A DNA stretch of 64,000 bases from Acidimicrobiia bacterium (lineage in GTDB: Bacteria; Actinomycetota; Acidimicrobiia; IMCC26256; JACDBD01). Location: contig DATFXL010000102.1 of NCBI GenBank assembly GCA_035316025.1, forward strand, positions 1,195 through 65,194, given 5' to 3'. The notes below the pieces were generated by a model. That model made no database searches. It saw only the letters and a list, made by a program, of their open reading frames with translations, and had not been told where the DNA came from. Within the stretch, counting starts at the first letter, position 1; every line of letters begins with the position of its first letter. The translations under genes were made by a program, and so were the position numbers. Shown here piece by piece: positions 5,957-14,996 of the stretch.

Positions 5957-7249
5957 ATGACCACGAACGACCGAACCGTCGGTCGCTACCTGCGCTGGGT
6001 GCTCGCCGCCTTGTCGCTCGGGGCCGGGGTGATCCACTTCTCCGTCAGCGGGGAGCACTACAGCCTCTCGTGGATGCACGGGGCATTCTTCGCTGCCACC
6101 GCCTGGCTGCAGGTTGCTTGGGCAATCGGGGTCATCCTCCGACCCACGCGGCGCCTGCTCGTCGCCGGCGTCGTTCTCAATGCCGGCATCGCCCTGGTGT
6201 GGGCGGTCTCACGGGTGTGGGGCGTACCGATCGGGCCCGATGCCTGGACGCCGGAGGCGGCCACCTTCATCGACCAGCTCTCGACCGGCTTCGAGCTCGG
6301 AATCGTCGGGCTGTCGCTCGCCGTTCTCGTGCGGCCGGCGCTTGCGACCCAGAAGATGCGCCCATCCGTTGCGGCCCCGAGCTTCGGTCTCGCCGTCATC
6401 GCCGTCGCCGTGTTCTCGTCGCTGGCCGTGGCGCCGGCGTTCGCAGCCGGGGACGGAGGGGGCCACAGCCACGGCGGGAGCGCGGAGGCCGCGGGCCACA
6501 GCCACGGAGCCGCCGCCGACAGCGGAGCCGCGCACGCTGGGCACGGCGCAATCGTGAGCAACGCGCCCGTGGGCGACACGCCGTGCGAGCAGTCGGGCCC
6601 GCCCGCCTCCGAGGGTCAGATCTCGAGCGCCGGCGGTCACGGCCACCGCGGTCCGATCAAGTGGAACCCGATCCCCGATCGCGCCACCCGTGATCAGCTC
6701 GGACAGCAGCTCGACGTCGCGCACCAGGTCACCCTGCAGTTCCCGACCGTCACCGACGCCGAAGCGGCGGGCTACACCAAGGTCACCGAATACGTGCCCT
6801 GCATCGGTGCGCACTACATCAAGGCGAGCAACATGCTCGGTGGGTTCGACCCGGCCAAGCCGTCGATGCTGTTGTACGACGGCACGAACCCGGACTCGAA
6901 GATCGTCGGGCTCAGCTACTCCGTCCTCGGTGACCCCAACAAGCCGCCCGAAGGCTTCGCGGGGCCGAACGACCCGTGGCACAAGCACGACAAGAACGGC
7001 GGCTTGTGCATGAAGGGTGGCGTCGTGATCGGCGCCGAGAGCACGACCGACGCGGAGTGCTCGGCGCGTGGCGGCAGGAAGGTCGCGCTGCGCAACCTGT
7101 GGATGATGCACGCGTGGACCGCCGACGCGTGGCAGAGCTCATGGGGCATCTTCAGCGCCGAGAACCCGGACCTCGGCGGCAAGATCGGCGACATCAACGG
7201 CACGCCCGATGCCGCGTCGCGTAAGCAGCTCGGCAACACCGAGACGTAG
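5957..7249 (+). CDS. Hypothetical membrane-anchored protein with His-rich linker
   Basis: 430 aa. 4-5 N-terminal TM helices, then GDGGGHSHGGSAEAAGHSHGAAADSGAAHAGHG, then a Cys-containing soluble domain I cannot assign. Confidence 0.65.
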   Translation: MTTNDRTVGRYLRWVLAALSLGAGVIHFSVSGEHYSLSWMHGAFFAATAWLQVAWAIGVILRPTRRLLVAGVVLNAGIALVWAVSRVWGVPIGPDAWTPEAATFIDQLSTGFELGIVGLSLAVLVRPALATQKMRPSVAAPSFGLAVIAVAVFSSLAVAPAFAAGDGGGHSHGGSAEAAGHSHGAAADSGAAHAGHGAIVSNAPVGDTPCEQSGPPASEGQISSAGGHGHRGPIKWNPIPDRATRDQLGQQLDVAHQVTLQFPTVTDAEAAGYTKVTEYVPCIGAHYIKASNMLGGFDPAKPSMLLYDGTNPDSKIVGLSYSVLGDPNKPPEGFAGPNDPWHKHDKNGGLCMKGGVVIGAESTTDAECSARGGRKVALRNLWMMHAWTADAWQSSWGIFSAENPDLGGKIGDINGTPDAASRKQLGNTET

Positions 7250-7271: not shown

Positions 7272-7979
7272 CTAGGACAGTGGCGACCACGCGGTCGTGC
7301 GCAGGAGCTTGCTCTCCCAGTCGTCGCGCACCTCGAGGGCGTCGTTCATCCACGTGCCCGGAGCCCGGTGCTCGGGCGGGACCTCGGTCGTCACCAGCGG
7401 CGTGATGCCCTTCACCTGCGTGACCTTCTGCCAGAGGACGACCTCGCGCCAGCGTCCCGATCCCCACGCGGGGCGGAATACGGCCTGGAGCTCCAACAAC
7501 GACCGTCCGGTGCGGCCGCTCTCGGCCAGGCTCGGCGCGTAGTTGGTGCGGGCCGCCTCGAGGTACTGGTCGAGCCTGCCCTCGTAGGGCCAGGCGGTGT
7601 CCTCCATGAACAGCGTGAGCGGGTGGTGTCCGCTCGTCGGCACCTCGGCCAGGTCGACCTCCTGCAGGGGCGACCACGGCACGGGCACGAGCATCTTGGC
7701 GGCCACCCGGTGGCGCAGCTGGTCGACGTCGTGCGCCCACGGCTGGAGGTCGCCGTCGTGCAACCGCAGCATCAGGTCCTCCCATGCGCGGCCGTCGCGG
7801 ACGGCGGTGAGGGTGACCACGTTGTAGGCGCGGCCGGTGCCGTGCGAGTGGTGAAGGAAATAGAGGAGACGGGCATCGTCGCCCTTGGCGAGCGACGGCA
7901 TCCAACCGTCGCGGTACGCGGCCTCGAACTCCTCTTCCCGGCGGCCCGCGACCTGATGGACTTCGTGCAGGAACAGCAT
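7272..7979 (-). CDS. Hypothetical protein (possibly tandem dimeric alpha/beta-barrel, NIPSNAP-like)
   Basis: 235 aa non-repetitive ORF, 19 nt downstream of the selenoprotein gene, with GGGGGCGAGGA before the ATG. The fold guess is weak. Confidence 0.55.
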   Translation of the reverse strand: MLFLHEVHQVAGRREEEFEAAYRDGWMPSLAKGDDARLLYFLHHSHGTGRAYNVVTLTAVRDGRAWEDLMLRLHDGDLQPWAHDVDQLRHRVAAKMLVPVPWSPLQEVDLAEVPTSGHHPLTLFMEDTAWPYEGRLDQYLEAARTNYAPSLAESGRTGRSLLELQAVFRPAWGSGRWREVVLWQKVTQVKGITPLVTTEVPPEHRAPGTWMNDALEVRDDWESKLLRTTAWSPLS

Positions 7980-7998: not shown

Positions 7999-8535
7999 TC
8001 AGCTGGTGGAAAGGAGCCTACGCAGGATCTCCTCCAGCGCGCCGTCCGCCAGTGCCCGCATCTCGTCGTTGGTGCGGTCCTGGATCGGATGGGCCACGAA
8101 CACCCGGGCCGGGTCGGCGCCGAGCGCGGCGGCCTGCGCCGACGCGGCGTCGACGAACTCTGTCGAGGCGATCATCACTCCCGGCAGGCCGCTGCTCTCC
8201 AGGTTGACGATGTCGTGCACACTGCACGACGTGCACGAACCTCAATCAGCGAGCGCTTCGATCACCAGGTCGCACTGGGTGCCGATCTCGTGACGCAGGT
8301 CGACGGGCGCCGGCTTCGAAAAGGTCGGCTTCGAGAACCGCCGCACCGCGACACCGCGGTCGGCGAGCCGCGTCTCGAGCCGGTCGAGAAAGACGTCGCC
8401 GCGCGGCTTGGAGATGTCGAGCAGTCCGACGGTGCGGCCCTCGAGCGATGCCGGACGCGGCGAACGCTCGCGTGTCGGGGCAGACAGCTCGCCGGTGGGG
8501 TCGAGCAGGACACGACCGTCCGACGAAGCGCTCAT
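7999..8535 (-). CDS. UGSC-motif selenoprotein (in-frame UGA at 8242..8244 read as Sec)
   Basis: Track ORFs 8242..8586 and 7999..8220 share one frame, separated only by TGA plus 21 stop-free nt. Read-through gives ...EALAD-U-GSCTSCS-VHDIVNLESSGLPGVMIAST.... ATG 8535 overlaps the upstream stop (ATGA) and follows GGGAGGTGAGG. Confidence 0.7.
8212..8230 (-). other. Candidate bacterial SECIS hairpin
   Basis: mRNA 5'-GUCGUGC AGUGU GCACGAC-3': 7-bp perfect stem and 5-nt loop containing GU. It starts exactly 11 nt after the UGA. Confidence 0.5.
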
Positions 8536-9971
8536 GACCTCACCTCCCGGGTGACGGGCTGGCTGCCGCCGGGCCCGTTGATCCAACCACCGATGACGGC
8601 GGAGAACAATCCGGCCCTTCCGCCGGCATGCACGACGAGGAGCCCGTCGTCGCCGAACTTCGGCACCGTCATCCCGGCGAGGCCGGCGGGCAACCCCTCG
8701 GCGATCCCGCCCGCGCCCCGCACGACCTCGTCACCGTCGAGTTGAAGGAGCGCGAGCAGCTCCTCACGCAGGCGCGCCTTCGACCAGCCCCCTTCGCGGA
8801 ACACGCGACCGTGCTCCGGAGAGACGACGAGGATCGCGTCGAAGCCCAGCGCCATCTTCGGGTGCGGCACGGCCCGGATGCACGCGGCGAGGGAGCGCGC
8901 GAGCGAGTCCGGGGTGCGGCTGAGCTGGTCGACGATGCCGCGCACGCCGTCACCGGCGAAGAGCGTCACGGCCGACGAATCGGCGGGGAGGCCCCGTTCG
9001 GCGTGCAACGGCTCCCACGGCGAACTCTCCTCGTCCTCGGCGAAGCAGAAGGTGTACTTGCCGGGGTTCCCGAGCGTCGCCCGGTCGATCTCGCCGGGGC
9101 GGCCGCCGCCGACGTTGCGCACGACGAGCTGCAGCGCCCGGCCGATCGTGGCGTTGGCGCGGTTTCCCTGGCCGAGCGCGTTGATCCCCGAGTTCATCCC
9201 GATCGCGTTCGCGACGGGGCCGTTCACGATCACGACCGGACCAGAGAAGTAGGTCGTCGCCAGCAGCCCGTGAATGTTGAACTCGTCCGTGCACGCGGCC
9301 TCGACGGTCGTGAGCACGACGGGCAGGTACTCGGGTTTGCACCCCGCCAACACGGCGTTGACCGCGACCTTTTCGACGGTGCACTCGACAAGGTCGGGCG
9401 GCACGATTGCCACCACGTCGTCCGGCGCGCGTGTCGTGCCCGTCAGCATCCGTGCGACCCGCTCGGCGGTCGGCGGCACGACCGGCAGCCCGTCGCTCCA
9501 GCCCCGCTCGAACACGGCCTCGACGTCGTCTTCCTGCGCGCCGAGGTCGATGCGGCGGGAGCGCAGGCGGGTGGCGCCGAGCGCGTCGGCGTGGGCGGCG
9601 GCGACGTCAGGGTCGAGGGTCCGCGAGCCACAGCCGGGCCGGTATTCGGGGAGCCCGGCGCCGAGTGGCGCCTGTCCCGTGAACGCCTCCCATTCCGACC
9701 GCATCCATCCCTCGGCCCGGGCGACGATCGCGCCGCCGTCGACGCGCAGCAGCGTCGGGACCGTTTCCAGCTCGAGCGCGAACGACACGTCGAGCGCGGT
9801 GTCGTCGACGACGTCGAGGCCATCCGGGAACGTGGGATCGTCCTGCGAGTAGACGGTGAGGCGGTCGTCGCCGTCGGCCAGGTCGGCGAGCACGGGAGCG
9901 ACGAGCCGGCACGTCGGGCAGTCACGCTTCACGATCGCGACGAGCCCGTCGGGCAGTGGCGGTGGGGTCAC
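8532..9971 (-). CDS. Thioredoxin-fold (CPTC) domain fused to an uncharacterised ~370-aa domain
   Basis: GTG 9971 overlaps the serC stop (GTGA). N-terminus VAIVKRDCPTCRLVAPVL...ETVPTLL shows a CxxC plus cis-Pro loop. The remainder is unassigned. The track ORF extension to 10475 is a shadow over serC. Confidence 0.75.
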   Translation of the reverse strand: MTPPPLPDGLVAIVKRDCPTCRLVAPVLADLADGDDRLTVYSQDDPTFPDGLDVVDDTALDVSFALELETVPTLLRVDGGAIVARAEGWMRSEWEAFTGQAPLGAGLPEYRPGCGSRTLDPDVAAAHADALGATRLRSRRIDLGAQEDDVEAVFERGWSDGLPVVPPTAERVARMLTGTTRAPDDVVAIVPPDLVECTVEKVAVNAVLAGCKPEYLPVVLTTVEAACTDEFNIHGLLATTYFSGPVVIVNGPVANAIGMNSGINALGQGNRANATIGRALQLVVRNVGGGRPGEIDRATLGNPGKYTFCFAEDEESSPWEPLHAERGLPADSSAVTLFAGDGVRGIVDQLSRTPDSLARSLAACIRAVPHPKMALGFDAILVVSPEHGRVFREGGWSKARLREELLALLQLDGDEVVRGAGGIAEGLPAGLAGMTVPKFGDDGLLVVHAGGRAGLFSAVIGGWINGPGGSQPVTREVRS

Positions 9972-11110
9972 GCTCGCTCGATCAGGTAGTCGATCGCCCG
10001 GGTGAGGGTTGCGAGGTCGTCGGGTTCGATGTTCGGGAACATCGCGATGCGCAGCTGGTTCCGGCCGAGCTTGCGGTACGACTCGGTGTCGAGGATCGCG
10101 TTCGCGCGTAGCTGGGCCGCGAGCCACTTGGCGTCGATCGGTTCCGCGAAGTCGATCGTTGCGGTGACGCGGCTGCGCTCGTCGGGCTTCGCCACGAACG
10201 GGGCCGCGTGCCGATGGGACTCGGCCCAGCCGTAGACGATCTCGGCCGACCGGTCGCAGCGCGAAGCCGCCCATTCGAGCCCGCCGTGGCCGAGCAGCCA
10301 GTCGAGCTGGTCGGCGACGAGGAACAGGGTCGCCAGCGCGGGCGTGTTGTAGGTCTGGTCGAGGCGGGAGTTCTCGAGCGCGATCGCGAGACTCAGCGAG
10401 GGCGGGATCCAACGTCCGGAGCCCGCGATGCGCTCGATGCGCTCGGTCGCCGCCGGTGAGCAGCACGCGAGCCACAGCCCTCCCTCGCCACCGAGGACCT
10501 TCTGCGGCGCGAAGTAATAGACGTCGAACTGCATGGGGTCGACGCGCAGCCCGCCGGCGGCGGAGGTGGCGTCGACGACGACCAGCCCTCGCTGCGCGTC
10601 GACGCTGTCCGGCCGCCGCACCTCGGTCATCACGCCCGTGGACGTCTCGTTGTGCGGGTAGGCATAGACGTCGACGTCGGGGACCTCGCGCAGCGCCGGA
10701 TGCGTGCCGGGCGCCGACTCGATCACGCGGGGGTCTTCGAGGTGGGGGACCCCGGTGGCGGCGGCGGCGAACTTGGCCGAGAACTCGCCGAAGCTGAGGT
10801 GCTCGCTGCGCCGGTCGATCAGGCCGAAGACGGCCGCGTCCCAGAACACCGTGGTGCCGCCCACGCCGAGCATCACCTCGTACCCGTCCGGGAGCCCGAA
10901 CAGGTCGGTCAGCCCGGCCCGGATGCGGCGCACGACGGCGCGCACGCCTTCGCGCCGGTGGCTGGTGCCGAGGTACGTCGGGGCCGCGGCGGCGAGTGCG
11001 TCGACGGCCTCGGCGCGGATCTTCGACGGCCCCGAACCGAACCGGCCGTCCGATGGCAGCAGCTCGGAGGGGACGTGAATCGGGGTCGTGTCATCCCGGG
11101 CCGGCGTCAC
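9968..11110 (-). CDS. serC: Phosphoserine aminotransferase (actinobacterial type)
   Basis: 380 aa. LPSDGRFGSGPSKIR...YLGTSHRR... matches mycobacterial-type SerC. Confidence 0.9.
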   Translation of the reverse strand: MTPARDDTTPIHVPSELLPSDGRFGSGPSKIRAEAVDALAAAAPTYLGTSHRREGVRAVVRRIRAGLTDLFGLPDGYEVMLGVGGTTVFWDAAVFGLIDRRSEHLSFGEFSAKFAAAATGVPHLEDPRVIESAPGTHPALREVPDVDVYAYPHNETSTGVMTEVRRPDSVDAQRGLVVVDATSAAGGLRVDPMQFDVYYFAPQKVLGGEGGLWLACCSPAATERIERIAGSGRWIPPSLSLAIALENSRLDQTYNTPALATLFLVADQLDWLLGHGGLEWAASRCDRSAEIVYGWAESHRHAAPFVAKPDERSRVTATIDFAEPIDAKWLAAQLRANAILDTESYRKLGRNQLRIAMFPNIEPDDLATLTRAIDYLIERA

Positions 11111-12230: not shown

Positions 12231-12860
12231 TCAGCGCGTCGCGGAGCGTTCGGTGGTGTCGCCCGTCAGCTCCCGGTACCAGGCGGGCCGCTCGGTGCGG
12301 GCCCAATAGGGCGTGACGCCCCCGCGGGTCATGCCGCCGAGTGCAATCGGATCGCGGATGGCGAAGAAGATGTGGCCGAGCACGGCGACCCAGATGCCGA
12401 AGGCGAACCAGTCGTGCACGAACGTCGCGCCCGTGCGCAGGTCGTTGGAGAACGGGCTCGGCCAGCGCAGCATCAACCCGGTGGCGAGCATGACGACGAC
12501 GGCGCCGGCGAAGAACGTGGCGTTGAGCTTCTGGCCGGCGTTGAACTTGCCCGTGTCGAGGCGGCCGGGCCGGACACGATTGCGACGGCGAAACCAGCGA
12601 GCGTCGTCTCGCGTCCAGCGGTTGATACGCGCAACGTCGCGGCGGAGCTGACTGCCCCACCGTCCGCCGAGGGCGACGAGCACGGGCACGGGTAGGAGGA
12701 TGCCGGCGTAAACGTGTACCTGCCGGAAGAGCTCGCGCCGTCCGAACATCGCCGAGAACGGGCCTGCGTACAACACCGCGCCGGTGAGCATCAGCACGCC
12801 GAAGAGCGCGGCCGTGGTCCAGTGAGCGACGCGCTCGACGCGGTCGAAGCGCGGGATCAT
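12231..12860 (-). CDS. Cytochrome b family membrane protein (Ni-hydrogenase/FdnI-type cytochrome b)
   Basis: ATG 12860 gives MIPRFDRVERVAHWTTAALFGVLMLTG. 4 TM helices with conserved His. Lies 7 nt after the Moco-oxidoreductase gene. Confidence 0.7.
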   Translation of the reverse strand: MIPRFDRVERVAHWTTAALFGVLMLTGAVLYAGPFSAMFGRRELFRQVHVYAGILLPVPVLVALGGRWGSQLRRDVARINRWTRDDARWFRRRNRVRPGRLDTGKFNAGQKLNATFFAGAVVVMLATGLMLRWPSPFSNDLRTGATFVHDWFAFGIWVAVLGHIFFAIRDPIALGGMTRGGVTPYWARTERPAWYRELTGDTTERSATR

Positions 12861-12867
12861 GTCGGGA

Positions 12868-13566
12868 TCACGTTGTGCTGTCGTCACGGTTGTTGGAGCG
12901 TCCGACCCAGGCGTCGACGTCGTAGCCGCGGTTCTCCCAGTAGCCCGGGACGACCTCATCGGTCACCTCGATGCGCTCGAGCCACTTGATCGACTTGTAG
13001 CCGTACATCGGCGCCACGTAGAGCCGGACGGGGCCGCCGTGGGCGTCCGAAAGGTTCTCGCCTTCCAGCTCGTAGGCGACGAGCACGTCGTCGCGGCGCG
13101 CTTGCTTCAGCGTGAGGCTCTCGGTGTACGTGCCGTCGAAGGACCGGAAGCGCAGCGCTTTCGCGGACGGCTGCACGCCGGCGCGGTCGAGCACATCGGC
13201 GAGCCGGACGCCCTTCCATTTCACGTCGAAGACGCGCCAACCCGTGACGCACTGAAAGTCGCGGCTGAGGCCGGCGGGCTGCATCGTGCGGAGATCGCCA
13301 TAGCTGAGCGCCAACGGCTGATCGACGAGGCCGGCGACCTGCAGGCGATACTCGTCGTGGCCGCGATGCGGCATCGAGCCCGTGACCGAATAGATGCGGA
13401 ATCGGCCGATCGGCAGGAGCCCCGACAGCCCGGTGCCGTCTTTGGCCAGGTACGGGCCCACCTGCCGCTCGAGCCATCGCTGGACGTTCGAGCCCCAGAG
13501 GATCCCCGCCGCGCCCACCCCCAGCAGTCCGAGGAACACCCGCCGTCCGACCGGTGCACCGTCCAT
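12868..13566 (-). CDS. Molybdopterin-dependent oxidoreductase (sulfite oxidase/MsrP-like)
   Basis: ATG 13566 gives MDGAPVGRRVFLGLLGVGAAG (Tat-like). FQCVTGW and YGYKSIKWL motifs are present. Confidence 0.8.
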   Translation of the reverse strand: MDGAPVGRRVFLGLLGVGAAGILWGSNVQRWLERQVGPYLAKDGTGLSGLLPIGRFRIYSVTGSMPHRGHDEYRLQVAGLVDQPLALSYGDLRTMQPAGLSRDFQCVTGWRVFDVKWKGVRLADVLDRAGVQPSAKALRFRSFDGTYTESLTLKQARRDDVLVAYELEGENLSDAHGGPVRLYVAPMYGYKSIKWLERIEVTDEVVPGYWENRGYDVDAWVGRSNNRDDSTT

Positions 13567-13628
13567 GCGCTCAGGATAGGAACCCCACCCCTCCGCGCCG
13601 GTGTCGCGATCCGGAATTCCCGGAACGC

Positions 13629-14996
13629 TCAGGCGCCGAGTGCCACTACCTCGGCGAAGCCGGCTTCGACGGACGCGGCGAACTCGGGCGCGTCGGGGAT
13701 CGCGACCGCGTCGGCGTTGATTCCGATGCAGCACGTGTCGCAGTGCGACAGCAACGTGACGTTGGCCGCGGTGCCCGACAGGGGGCCGAAGGGGTACATG
13801 CGCTCGAGCTCGGCGCCCGCGACGTACAACGGGAACGGCGAGCCCGGCACGTTGCTCGTGACGAAGTCGGATCCCTTCAGCATGGCGCCGAAGAACGCGG
13901 TGGTCATTCGCGACGGGAGCTGGTTGAGCACCATTGCGACGGCGTCGGTGAGGCCGATCGCCGGTTCGTCGCGTACGCCTTGGGCGAGGTGTCCGAGGGC
14001 TCGCATCCGCTCCTCGGGGTCGGCGATCTGGAGCGGGACGAGGAACCGGGACGGCGTGAAGTGATTCCCGCCGAGAGCGGCGCCCTCGCCCCGGAGGTTG
14101 ATGGGCATCATCATCCGCAGCTCGGCCGGCTCGACGTCGTGTTGCTCGTGGTAGCGCTGTATGCCGCCGACGACGGACGCGAGAAACGCGTCGTTGAGCG
14201 AGCCGCCGACCGACTTGGCGGCGCGCTTCAAGTCGTCCAGTGGCACGTCGAGCGTCGCCAGGCTGCGAGCGAGGCTGCGAGCACCGATGATCGGCGAGCG
14301 GGGCGTGGTCGCCGGCGCAAGGAAGGACGCCAAGGACCGCGCCATCCGGCCGGCTTCCTTCAACGCGGCCTCGGGGTCACGGGTGACGTCGCGTGCCGCG
14401 TGGACCGTGTTGGCGAGCGCGTGCTGGACGATGGCCCAGGCTCGCTGCCGTTGGTAGTCAAGGGAGCGGCCGAGGAGCGCGATCGGCGTCAAAGCGGGGA
14501 GATCGTGGAGCTCGACCGTCCGCGCCGGTGATTCCGGCTCGCGCTCGAGGTCGAACAGCATCATCAGGAGCTTCATGCCGCCGACACCATCGGTCATCGA
14601 GTGGTGCACCTTGATGACGAACGCCGCCCGGCCGCCTTCGAGCCCGTCCACGACCGTGTACTCCCACAGGGGCCGGACGCGGTCGAAGCCGGCCATGGCG
14701 GCATTGCGAGCGAGGTCGAGCACCGAGTCGAAGTTGCCGGGGTCGGGGGCGCGCACGCGGCGCAGGTGATACGACAGGTCGAAGTTTGGATCGGCGGACC
14801 AGCACGGTGGTCCGACGCGCGGGAGCGGCGTCACAACGCGTTGGCGCAGGCGGGGGATGAGGCGGCTGCCACGATCGACCCGCTCGACCAGCGCATCCCA
14901 GTCCGGGCTGCGGTCGAGTGTCAGGATCGTGACGACCGTCGAGCGGAGCGTGGGGTCCTTCTCAACGGTCCACATGAGCGCGTCGGCGTCGCTCAT
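13629..14996 (-). CDS. Wax ester synthase/diacylglycerol acyltransferase (WS/DGAT)
   Basis: HHSMTDGVGG catalytic HHxxxDG motif. ATG 14996 (MSDADALMWTVEKDPTLRST) fits the 44-nt gap to the upstream gene. Confidence 0.85.
   Translation of the reverse strand: MSDADALMWTVEKDPTLRSTVVTILTLDRSPDWDALVERVDRGSRLIPRLRQRVVTPLPRVGPPCWSADPNFDLSYHLRRVRAPDPGNFDSVLDLARNAAMAGFDRVRPLWEYTVVDGLEGGRAAFVIKVHHSMTDGVGGMKLLMMLFDLEREPESPARTVELHDLPALTPIALLGRSLDYQRQRAWAIVQHALANTVHAARDVTRDPEAALKEAGRMARSLASFLAPATTPRSPIIGARSLARSLATLDVPLDDLKRAAKSVGGSLNDAFLASVVGGIQRYHEQHDVEPAELRMMMPINLRGEGAALGGNHFTPSRFLVPLQIADPEERMRALGHLAQGVRDEPAIGLTDAVAMVLNQLPSRMTTAFFGAMLKGSDFVTSNVPGSPFPLYVAGAELERMYPFGPLSGTAANVTLLSHCDTCCIGINADAVAIPDAPEFAASVEAGFAEVVALGA

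Follow-up and report, generated by a model that had tools for sequence, protein, structure and literature searches.

What does a large and strongly conserved protein domain without a recognised family do next to a selenoprotein gene? The question was raised by a locus in a 64,000-nucleotide (nt) stretch of DNA from an Acidimicrobiia bacterium (contig DATFXL010000102.1 of assembly GCA_035316025.1), hereafter the window. One gene in it encoded a protein of 479 amino acids (aa), in which a thioredoxin (Trx)-fold domain was joined to the domain in question, here termed X, and this Trx-X gene was followed by the gene of a UGSC family selenoprotein. The comparative analysis showed that UGSC has X as a near-obligate partner, which is sometimes fused to it. 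Since the adjacency was nearly constant and fusions occurred, the pair is probably an undescribed selenium-dependent redox enzyme.

At least 8,000 database proteins matched Trx-X at E ≤ 1e-3 in a word-indexed search, and Trx-X is therefore a real, conserved gene. Its translation from the minus strand reproduced the 479-aa protein that an earlier note on this DNA had described. The mechanical open reading frame (ORF) over the gene was longer (8532..10475, 647 aa), and its 168 extra upstream codons were located within serC in another frame, as the same note had also recognised. The true start was the GTG at 9971..9969, which shared the letters GTGA with the stop codon of serC. This start was supported by more than 100 homologues of 470–481 aa, which began at the equal point. 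At the other end, the TGA stop codon of Trx-X shared the letters ATGA with the start codon of UGSC, and a GGAGG ribosome-binding site for UGSC was found inside the end of the Trx-X gene, just 5′ of the ATG. This arrangement points to translational coupling of UGSC to Trx-X.

The coupling extended far beyond the window. In a scan of one genome per GTDB species, the Trx-X protein was found in at least 592 species belonging to Actinomycetota, Chloroflexota, Myxococcota, Desulfobacterota, Nitrospirota, Spirochaetota, and Proteobacteria. Neighbourhoods were read in the best 80 of these species, whose Trx-X proteins were 62–88% identical to that of the window. A UGSC gene encoding selenocysteine (Sec) was located downstream on the same strand in 77 of the 80 loci, at a distance of −6 to 112 nt in 72 of them and of up to 5.2 kb in the other five, and two of the three loci without a downstream UGSC stopped at a contig edge. 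No other gene family recurred around Trx-X, the most frequent being present in at most nine of the 80 loci.

The reverse test started from metagenome contigs that were found by a DNA pattern from the UGSC Sec codon and its selenocysteine insertion sequence (SECIS) only. The pattern gave 120 contigs, and 102 had enough upstream sequence. X was immediately upstream in 86 of these and 209–2563 nt upstream in nine more, which gave 95 of 102 by tblastn; contig L173 added one that was detected by hidden Markov model (HMM) only. Six of the 102 contained no X, and three of those six had large flanks. Among metagenome contigs, L094, L168, and L177 carried a Sec-UGSC gene but no X over a distance of several kb; their genomes may encode X at another place. 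Because some Sec-UGSC genes had no X nearby, the partnership was near-obligate and not absolute. Standalone X genes from distant clusters also adjoined Sec-UGSC genes, in either order. The co-occurrence with UGSC that the earlier note had proposed to check was thus near-universal in both directions, and natural fusions were found in addition.

The UGSC protein of the window scored 153.4 bits against PF24696 (cut-off 25) and 155.2 bits against NF041046 (cut-off 125), and its motif was ALAD-U-GSCTSC. At the U position of 77 orthologous loci, 74 had TGA and three had TAG in the same column. The stem of the hairpin that follows this codon was paired in 95–100% of 75 distinct orthologous sequences. 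Serine codons within the stem were fixed (TCG in 70 of 75, AGT in 71 of 75), and the serine codon just outside it was written with six different codons; GC to AT compensatory changes were present together with GC to GU changes. The pairing, the fixed stem codons and the compensatory changes indicated that the hairpin is a constrained SECIS element. TAG at the Sec position, followed by the same hairpin, was found in three Blastococcus genomes (L045 7401-7892, L062 7392-7883, and L069 7392-7850). Recoding of UAG to Sec with a tRNA-Sec(CUA) is known in Geodermatophilaceae, where UGSC and formate dehydrogenase were reported and where the selenoproteins reported at a UAG-recoded Sec codon are few (formate dehydrogenases, UGSC, and AhpC; PMC5330540). 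The TAG in the Blastococcus UGSC genes matches this known recoding.

An exhaustive profile search of 1.84 billion representatives at 50% identity yielded 7,084 X clusters at E ≤ 1e-3 and 1,986 at E ≤ 1e-30. Among the best 150 representatives, X was found alone (~340–375 aa), as an X-X tandem (~715 aa), behind CxxC domains of the Trx type or the Redoxin/AhpC-TSA/ResA type, and fused to UGSC. The source annotations of these proteins were only "hypothetical protein," "thioredoxin family protein," and "peroxiredoxin." Fusions of UGSC and X accounted for 16 of the 150 and occurred in both domain orders. Three of them were full-length Cys forms (P0237, P0242, and P0256). The other 13 started just past the Sec codon position or stopped at it, and, judging from these ends, they contain Sec and were truncated at the UGA by gene callers.

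Several loci of the wider family displayed more complex arrangements. A 6.4-kb ENA metagenome contig (k141_3103966; L084 1-6367) carried, in this order, a Sec-UGSC+X pair, an isochorismatase, a second Sec-UGSC+X pair, an X gene and a third Sec-UGSC+X pair, which suggests a paralogue expansion of X/UGSC within one genome. At L090 (241-5573), a gene for a TctC-family solute-binding protein was located between two UGSC-X fusion genes of the Cys form (614 and 556 aa). At L089 (9001-17240), a standalone X was followed by a 308-aa Pyr_redox_2 gene of thioredoxin-reductase size and, further downstream, by a gene for a 739-aa protein without a Pfam match and by TauE, PAPS reductase and sulfite reductase genes; UGSC was not detected at this locus.

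The distribution of one cysteine followed the partnership. C309 was retained in all 16 UGSC-fused proteins and was lost in all 10 domains of five X-X tandems, which had V, G or I instead. Residues C211, D160, R271, R278, E312, and H387 were retained in every X architecture, the tandems included. No UGSC was found within the available flanks of the five tandem representatives. C309 appears to be tied to the UGSC partnership, being kept in the UGSC fusions and lost in the tandems without UGSC. This pattern of conservation suggests that C309 communicates with the Sec or Cys of UGSC and that the other conserved residues are the active site of X itself. The tandems may be a single lineage, so the loss of C309 was counted as one observation and not as ten. 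Tandem genes of ~715–741 aa were found at L087 7213-9366, L091 9001-11154, L092 6836-8989, and L082 266-2491. In the first three, the gene began 14 nt past an SBP_bac_5 solute-binding gene, and short-chain dehydrogenases and a glyoxalase were near; the tandem of L082 was without such neighbours. The X-X tandems may represent a non-selenium branch of the X family.

The first ~110 residues of Trx-X had been read in the earlier note as a thioredoxin fold with a CPTC motif, a reading with which the predicted structure agreed and the Pfam thresholds did not. The full-length AlphaFold2 (AF2) model had a predicted local distance difference test score (pLDDT) of 81. Its N-terminal domain (residues 9–98) was very confident, with values of 92–96 over residues 11–110. 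In Foldseek, this domain matched dozens of thioredoxins with a prob of 1.0, a target-normalised TM of 0.55–0.73 and a root-mean-square deviation (rmsd) of 1.9–3 Å over ~95 residues. The C18-P-T-C21 motif directly preceded the helix of residues 19–32; it was invariant in 51 of 51 aligned homologues and present in 119 of 120 members of the close family. V71-P72-T73 was likewise invariant among the 51 aligned homologues and was placed like the "IPT" loop of thioredoxin. The best Pfam match of the domain, Thioredoxin_2 (E = 0.27, 12.1 bits vs. a cut-off of 27), was under the curated threshold, and NCBIfam gave no match for it. The domain is too divergent for the Pfam thioredoxin models; distant members of the X family do pass the Redoxin, AhpC-TSA and ResA models.

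The N-terminal domain shared with thioredoxin the fold and a CxxC motif at the beginning of helix 1. Its V-P-T loop, judged by sequence and position, would correspond to the cis-Pro loop of Escherichia coli thioredoxin. In contrast to thioredoxin, it was ~90 aa long, was without the first beta-alpha unit, and had CPTC instead of CGPC. A covalent linker, which contained an additional conserved cysteine (C114), also joined it to X. The RPGCGS motif around C114 was present in 117 of 120 members of the close family and in 18 of 31 distant Trx/Redoxin-fused representatives, and it was missing from X forms without an N-terminal redox domain.

The rest of the protein had been described in the earlier note as a conserved domain of ~370 aa that could not be assigned. 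It was still unassigned, and its extent was corrected: the core began at about residue 145, and residues 99–144 formed the linker. Pfam and NCBIfam gave no match to X for the window protein at E ≤ 0.01, nor did Pfam at E ≤ 10. When 47 diverse members of the X family were scanned singly, Pfam and NCBIfam detected only Trx-fold and UGSC domains, which belonged to the fusion partners. PDB sequences contained no match to X, either by phmmer with the protein or by hmmsearch with the X profile, and a search of them with UGSC also gave nothing.

Because a Foldseek search with the full-length model gave thioredoxin matches only, X was modelled by itself from a diverse alignment, which resulted in a pLDDT of 92.3 and a predicted TM score (pTM) of 0.90. 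Foldseek found no PDB neighbour of this model above a TM of 0.32 and no match among viral predicted structures. The top PDB matches were class I fumarate hydratases (Leishmania 6uqn/5l2r and M. jannaschii 7xky_A), with E about 1e-3, a prob of 0.6–0.77, a TM of 0.20–0.32, and an rmsd of 12–16 Å. Weaker matches followed to Toblerone-fold hydrolases, chorismatase and PurM-like proteins. Within the PDB and viral structure libraries searched, the X model looks like a fold without a solved relative. A confident match of the C-terminal region to a characterised enzyme family came from none of the Pfam, NCBIfam, PDB sequence and Foldseek searches.

The residues conserved across the whole X family were D160, T168, C211, N260, R271, N273, R278, C309, E312, and H387, and the conserved motifs were GWxDGLPVVPPT, NAVMAGC, GxGNRANAxIGRA, PGKYxFCFAE, and PEH. 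About 35 positions were at least 90% identical across the representatives, including D160, T168, C211, N260, R271, N273, R278, E312, and H387. Among the cysteines, C18, C21, C114, C211, C227, and C309 were invariant in the close family; across the wider X family, C211 was conserved in 94%, C309 in 87%, and C227 in 43%. Of the cysteines listed in the earlier note, only those of AGC (C211) and FCF (C309) were thus conserved family-wide; C227 was not, and C114 of GCGS was specific to the Trx/Redoxin-fused forms.

UGSC was described in 2007 as a selenoprotein, with a function then unknown (PMC1976440). Reports of 2007–2008 ranked it, among prokaryotic selenoprotein families, as one of the most abundant in metagenomes from the ocean and, above all, from freshwater (PMC2398784). 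In a 2026 review it still counts as functionally uncharacterised (PMC13188914), and a 2022 review likewise gives no function. The phrase "UGSC family" was found in no paper of the literature searched. A fusion of UGSC with a conserved domain named "Unknown_1," which has a conserved Cys, was reported in a few aquatic organisms (Zhang and Gladyshev, 2008, PLoS Genet, PMC2398784, Fig. S1A). Since UGSC+X fusions were found in both orders, Sec forms included, X is very probably "Unknown_1," matched by description and not by alignment. The window protein differs from it in being the Trx-fused form encoded by a separate gene adjacent to UGSC. The 2008 paper (PMC2398784) does not contain X as a general operon partner of separate UGSC genes, its Trx/Redoxin-fused forms, its X-X tandems or the size of the family. 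The general operon partnership with UGSC, the Trx-X architecture and the X-X forms appear to be new within the literature searched.

Here, a tentative explanation is favoured: Trx-X and UGSC may together make up a self-contained cytoplasmic redox enzyme, a reductase that works as a thiol/selenol relay. X would bind the substrate and act as the catalytic module, with a core site formed by D160, C211, R271, N273, R278, E312, and H387. UGSC would be the small redox subunit, and its Sec (in U-G-S-C) would exchange electrons with X, most likely via C309. The fused Trx domain, through CPTC and perhaps aided by C114 of RPGCGS, would re-reduce the oxidised selenenylsulfide or disulfide and would in turn regain its electrons from NADPH via thioredoxin reductase. 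Overall, the enzyme would reduce a small substrate, probably an anionic one in view of the conserved R271, N273, and R278. Since no other neighbour was conserved, the X/UGSC cassette would be self-sufficient. The data show how the domains are arranged, which residues are conserved, that the genes are coupled and naturally fused, and that Sec is encoded. Complex formation, the way in which the relay runs and the sequence of its steps, the choice of catalytic residues and a reductive reaction are what we infer here.

Several observations spoke for the relay, among them the two-way genomic coupling, the natural UGSC and X fusions, the standalone X genes next to Sec-UGSC genes and the pattern of C309. 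Trx-fold CxxC domains appear from their sequences to have been joined to X repeatedly and independently, as the minimal Trx domain here and as Redoxin/AhpC-TSA/ResA-like domains in distant members. A Pyr_redox_2 gene of thioredoxin-reductase size followed one standalone X (at L089), and no N-terminal signal peptide was apparent, as judged by eye from the sequence, in Trx-X or UGSC. By analogy, the system would resemble the Trx-recycled multi-Cys/Sec relays (Trx-coupled ArsC, MsrA/B, PAPS reductase, and the GCUG tail of mammalian thioredoxin reductase) in having a catalytic Cys, a resolving Cys, a Sec/Cys shuttle and a Trx-fold CxxC reductant in the cytoplasm. It differs from them in that X has no sequence or fold similarity to them and in that the Sec is on a separate protein of ~150–178 aa with a family of its own. 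Some Msr and Prx systems likewise contain a Trx-fold domain by fusion.

Other points weighed against the relay. X resembled no known reductase or other enzyme, and its catalytic role was deduced from conserved polar residues only. That C211, C309, and the other conserved residues form one site is likewise suggested by conservation. The correlation between C309 and UGSC came from five tandem representatives and may go back to one event in evolution. Some Cys-form fusions (GHCGASS and GDCGTST) had no resolving Cys in the UGSC motif, and about 6% of the UGSC genes in the reverse test had no adjacent X. It was also not evident why a fused Trx domain would need a Sec intermediary.

Three other explanations were considered, and each of them bears on what the Sec of UGSC would do. 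If X were a very distant relative of the Fe-S hydro-lyases, of the class I fumarate hydratase or serine dehydratase type, then C211, C309, and the Sec or Cys of UGSC (or C114 in the Trx-fused forms) would hold a metal or Fe-S centre where the subunits meet, and the Sec would be a ligand and not a shuttle. The class I fumarate hydratases were indeed the best and the only PDB fold matches with E around 1e-3, at a prob of up to 0.77. The minimal conserved Cys/Sec set in the UGSC-coupled forms was three (U/C98, C211, and C309), and a carboxylate substrate would fit the conserved D, H, R, R, and T. The spacing of C114, C211, and C309 (97 and 98 residues) is one that we take to be loosely similar to the cysteine spacing of class I fumarate hydratases. 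However, the TM and rmsd values of these matches were below the same-fold level (TM above ~0.5), and no Pfam Fumerase match was obtained even at E ≤ 10. C211 and C309 were the only family-wide cysteines within X, so X had no three-Cys motif for the ligands of a [4Fe-4S] cluster; C114 was missing from standalone X, and the X-X tandems kept C211 and lost C309. The repeated gain of CxxC Trx-fold domains also points to dithiol exchange and not to cluster chemistry. When the X profile was compared with E. coli FumA by hhalign, the prob was 0.1. On this negative result, membership of X in the fumarate hydratase family was rejected, and what survives of this explanation is very unlikely.

An analogy to the substrate-specific B components of the clostridial glycine, sarcosine, betaine or D-proline reductases (GrdB/GrdE and PrdB/PrdA) is unlikely as well. 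X would then bind an amine or organic acid, the Sec would attack it, a C-N or C-X bond would be cleaved reductively, and substrates would differ between paralogous pairs. Those reductases follow the same logic: one subunit contains Sec in a UxxC motif, a larger one has no Sec, and thioredoxin is supplied. Dependence on dithiol and paralogue families that differ in substrate would be further likenesses. The UxxC motif has been listed for both PrdB and UGSC (PMC2398784). The paralogues were expanded, with three Sec-UGSC+X pairs and an extra X on the 6.4-kb contig L084, and distant X paralogues adjoined solute-binding proteins (TctC and SBP_bac_5), isochorismatase, amidohydrolase and MaoC. Yet X and UGSC had no detectable homology to these components: neither matched a GRDB/PrdB, Gly_reductase or selenoprotein-B model in Pfam or NCBIfam, and UGSC matched its own model only. 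A pyruvoyl-forming cleavage site was not evident from the sequence. The hosts were mostly aerobes (Blastococcus, Pseudonocardia, and Acidimicrobiia) and not Stickland fermenters. In the 80 loci, the orthologues of the window gene had no conserved transporter or catabolic neighbours, and GrdA/GrdCD-like genes were absent from the conserved neighbourhood. It is quite unlikely, too, that X is no enzyme but a partner, scaffold or chaperone dedicated to UGSC, or a target regulated by it, and that the actual thiol/selenol oxidoreductase is UGSC, with peroxides, protein disulfides or other cell constituents as its substrates. UGSC has been placed among the putative Trx-like-fold selenoproteins (PMC2398784; PMC13188914), X was without a recognisable catalytic fold, and the coupling data alone do not tell which partner carries the chemistry. 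Against this, the ~35 positions with at least 90% identity extended across ~7,000 clusters and included D, C, R, N, R, E, and H, a pattern usual for active sites, and Trx-X was 62–88% identical across phyla. Since the X-X tandems without UGSC kept the conserved residues, X would have a function of its own. The remaining probability belongs to functions outside the relay reductase and these three alternatives.

The genes and motifs of the locus are collected in Table 1. The serC gene was located upstream of Trx-X in only about eight of the 80 loci. Orthologues of the 235-aa ORF downstream of UGSC, which had no match in Pfam or NCBIfam, were found in only six of the 80 loci (61–93% identical), each time alongside serC. 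Both genes are lineage-specific neighbours limited to close relatives of the window and lie outside the conserved cassette. An Rfam scan of the region gave nothing relevant, a promoter and terminator scan gave matches at chance level only, and no tRNA-Sec was found within the 64-kb window.

Table 1. Positions of the Trx-X and UGSC genes, their motifs, and neighbouring genes in the window.
Feature	Position	Strand	Basis or remark
Trx-X gene	8532..9971	minus	479 aa; minus-strand translation without internal stop
Thioredoxin-fold domain, residues 9–98	9678..9947	minus	AF2 pLDDT 92–96; Foldseek
CPTC active site (C18, C21)	9909..9920	minus	start of helix 1
VPT cis-Pro-type loop (V71-P72-T73)	9753..9761	minus	before strand 73–78
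Linker, residues 99–144	9540..9677	minus	pLDDT 91–93, well ordered
RPGCGS motif (C114) in linker	9624..9641	minus	motif counts in homologues
Domain X, residues ~145–479	8535..9539	minus	conservation; AF2; no Pfam, NCBIfam or PDB match
C211 codon	9339..9341	minus	family-wide conserved
C309 codon	9045..9047	minus	family-wide conserved
UGSC family selenoprotein gene, 178 aa	7999..8535	minus	PF24696 8.6e-45; NF041046 1.1e-45
In-frame TGA, Sec codon of UGSC	8242..8244	minus	ortholog column
SECIS-type hairpin GUCGUGCA-GUG-UGCACGAC	8212..8230	minus	starts 11 nt past UGA
serC (phosphoserine transaminase)	9968..11110	minus	TIGR01366 1.6e-155; upstream in same operon-like string
235-aa ORF	7272..7979	minus	begins 19 nt past UGSC, same operon-like string
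430-aa ORF	5957..7249	plus	
Oxidored_molyb protein and cytochrome b561	12231..13734	minus	1.2e-42 (Oxidored_molyb); 2.9e-21 (Ni_hydr_CYTB)

Two further features of the window were observed. The 430-aa ORF on the plus strand had N-terminal hydrophobic segments and His/Gly-rich repeats (GGGHSHGGSAEAAGHSHG) and no match in Pfam or NCBIfam; from its composition, it could be a metal-binding membrane protein. A protein with a molybdopterin-binding oxidoreductase domain and a cytochrome b561 formed a pair that looks, by its domains, like the MsrP/MsrQ type, and similar pairs were found in five related loci. The two ORFs as listed overlapped by 92 nt, so one start codon was probably mis-set.

X is large and strongly conserved, no Pfam or NCBIfam model covers it, and the PDB contains no structural relative of it. 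Its partnership turns UGSC from an orphan selenoprotein into a defined, expressible two-gene system of Trx-X and UGSC, the electrons of which would likely come from thioredoxin reductase. Candidate residues for mutation can be named (C18/C21, C114, C211, C309, and the Sec), and the natural Cys-form fusions P0237, P0242, and P0256 sidestep the difficulty of expressing Sec proteins. It is conceivable, though rather doubtful, that X and UGSC constitute a previously unrecognised class of selenium-dependent enzyme, in which the site of a new-fold catalytic domain is completed or recycled by a separate Sec subunit. Its reaction would lie outside those of the known selenoenzymes, and it would have many substrate-specific paralogues, whether standalone, in tandem, or fused to Trx, Redoxin or UGSC. 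If the activity is new, an enzyme fold and a use of selenium would be added to those already known. If this class of selenoenzyme is real, a function would be found for UGSC, one of the orphan selenoprotein families that are most abundant in aquatic metagenomes.

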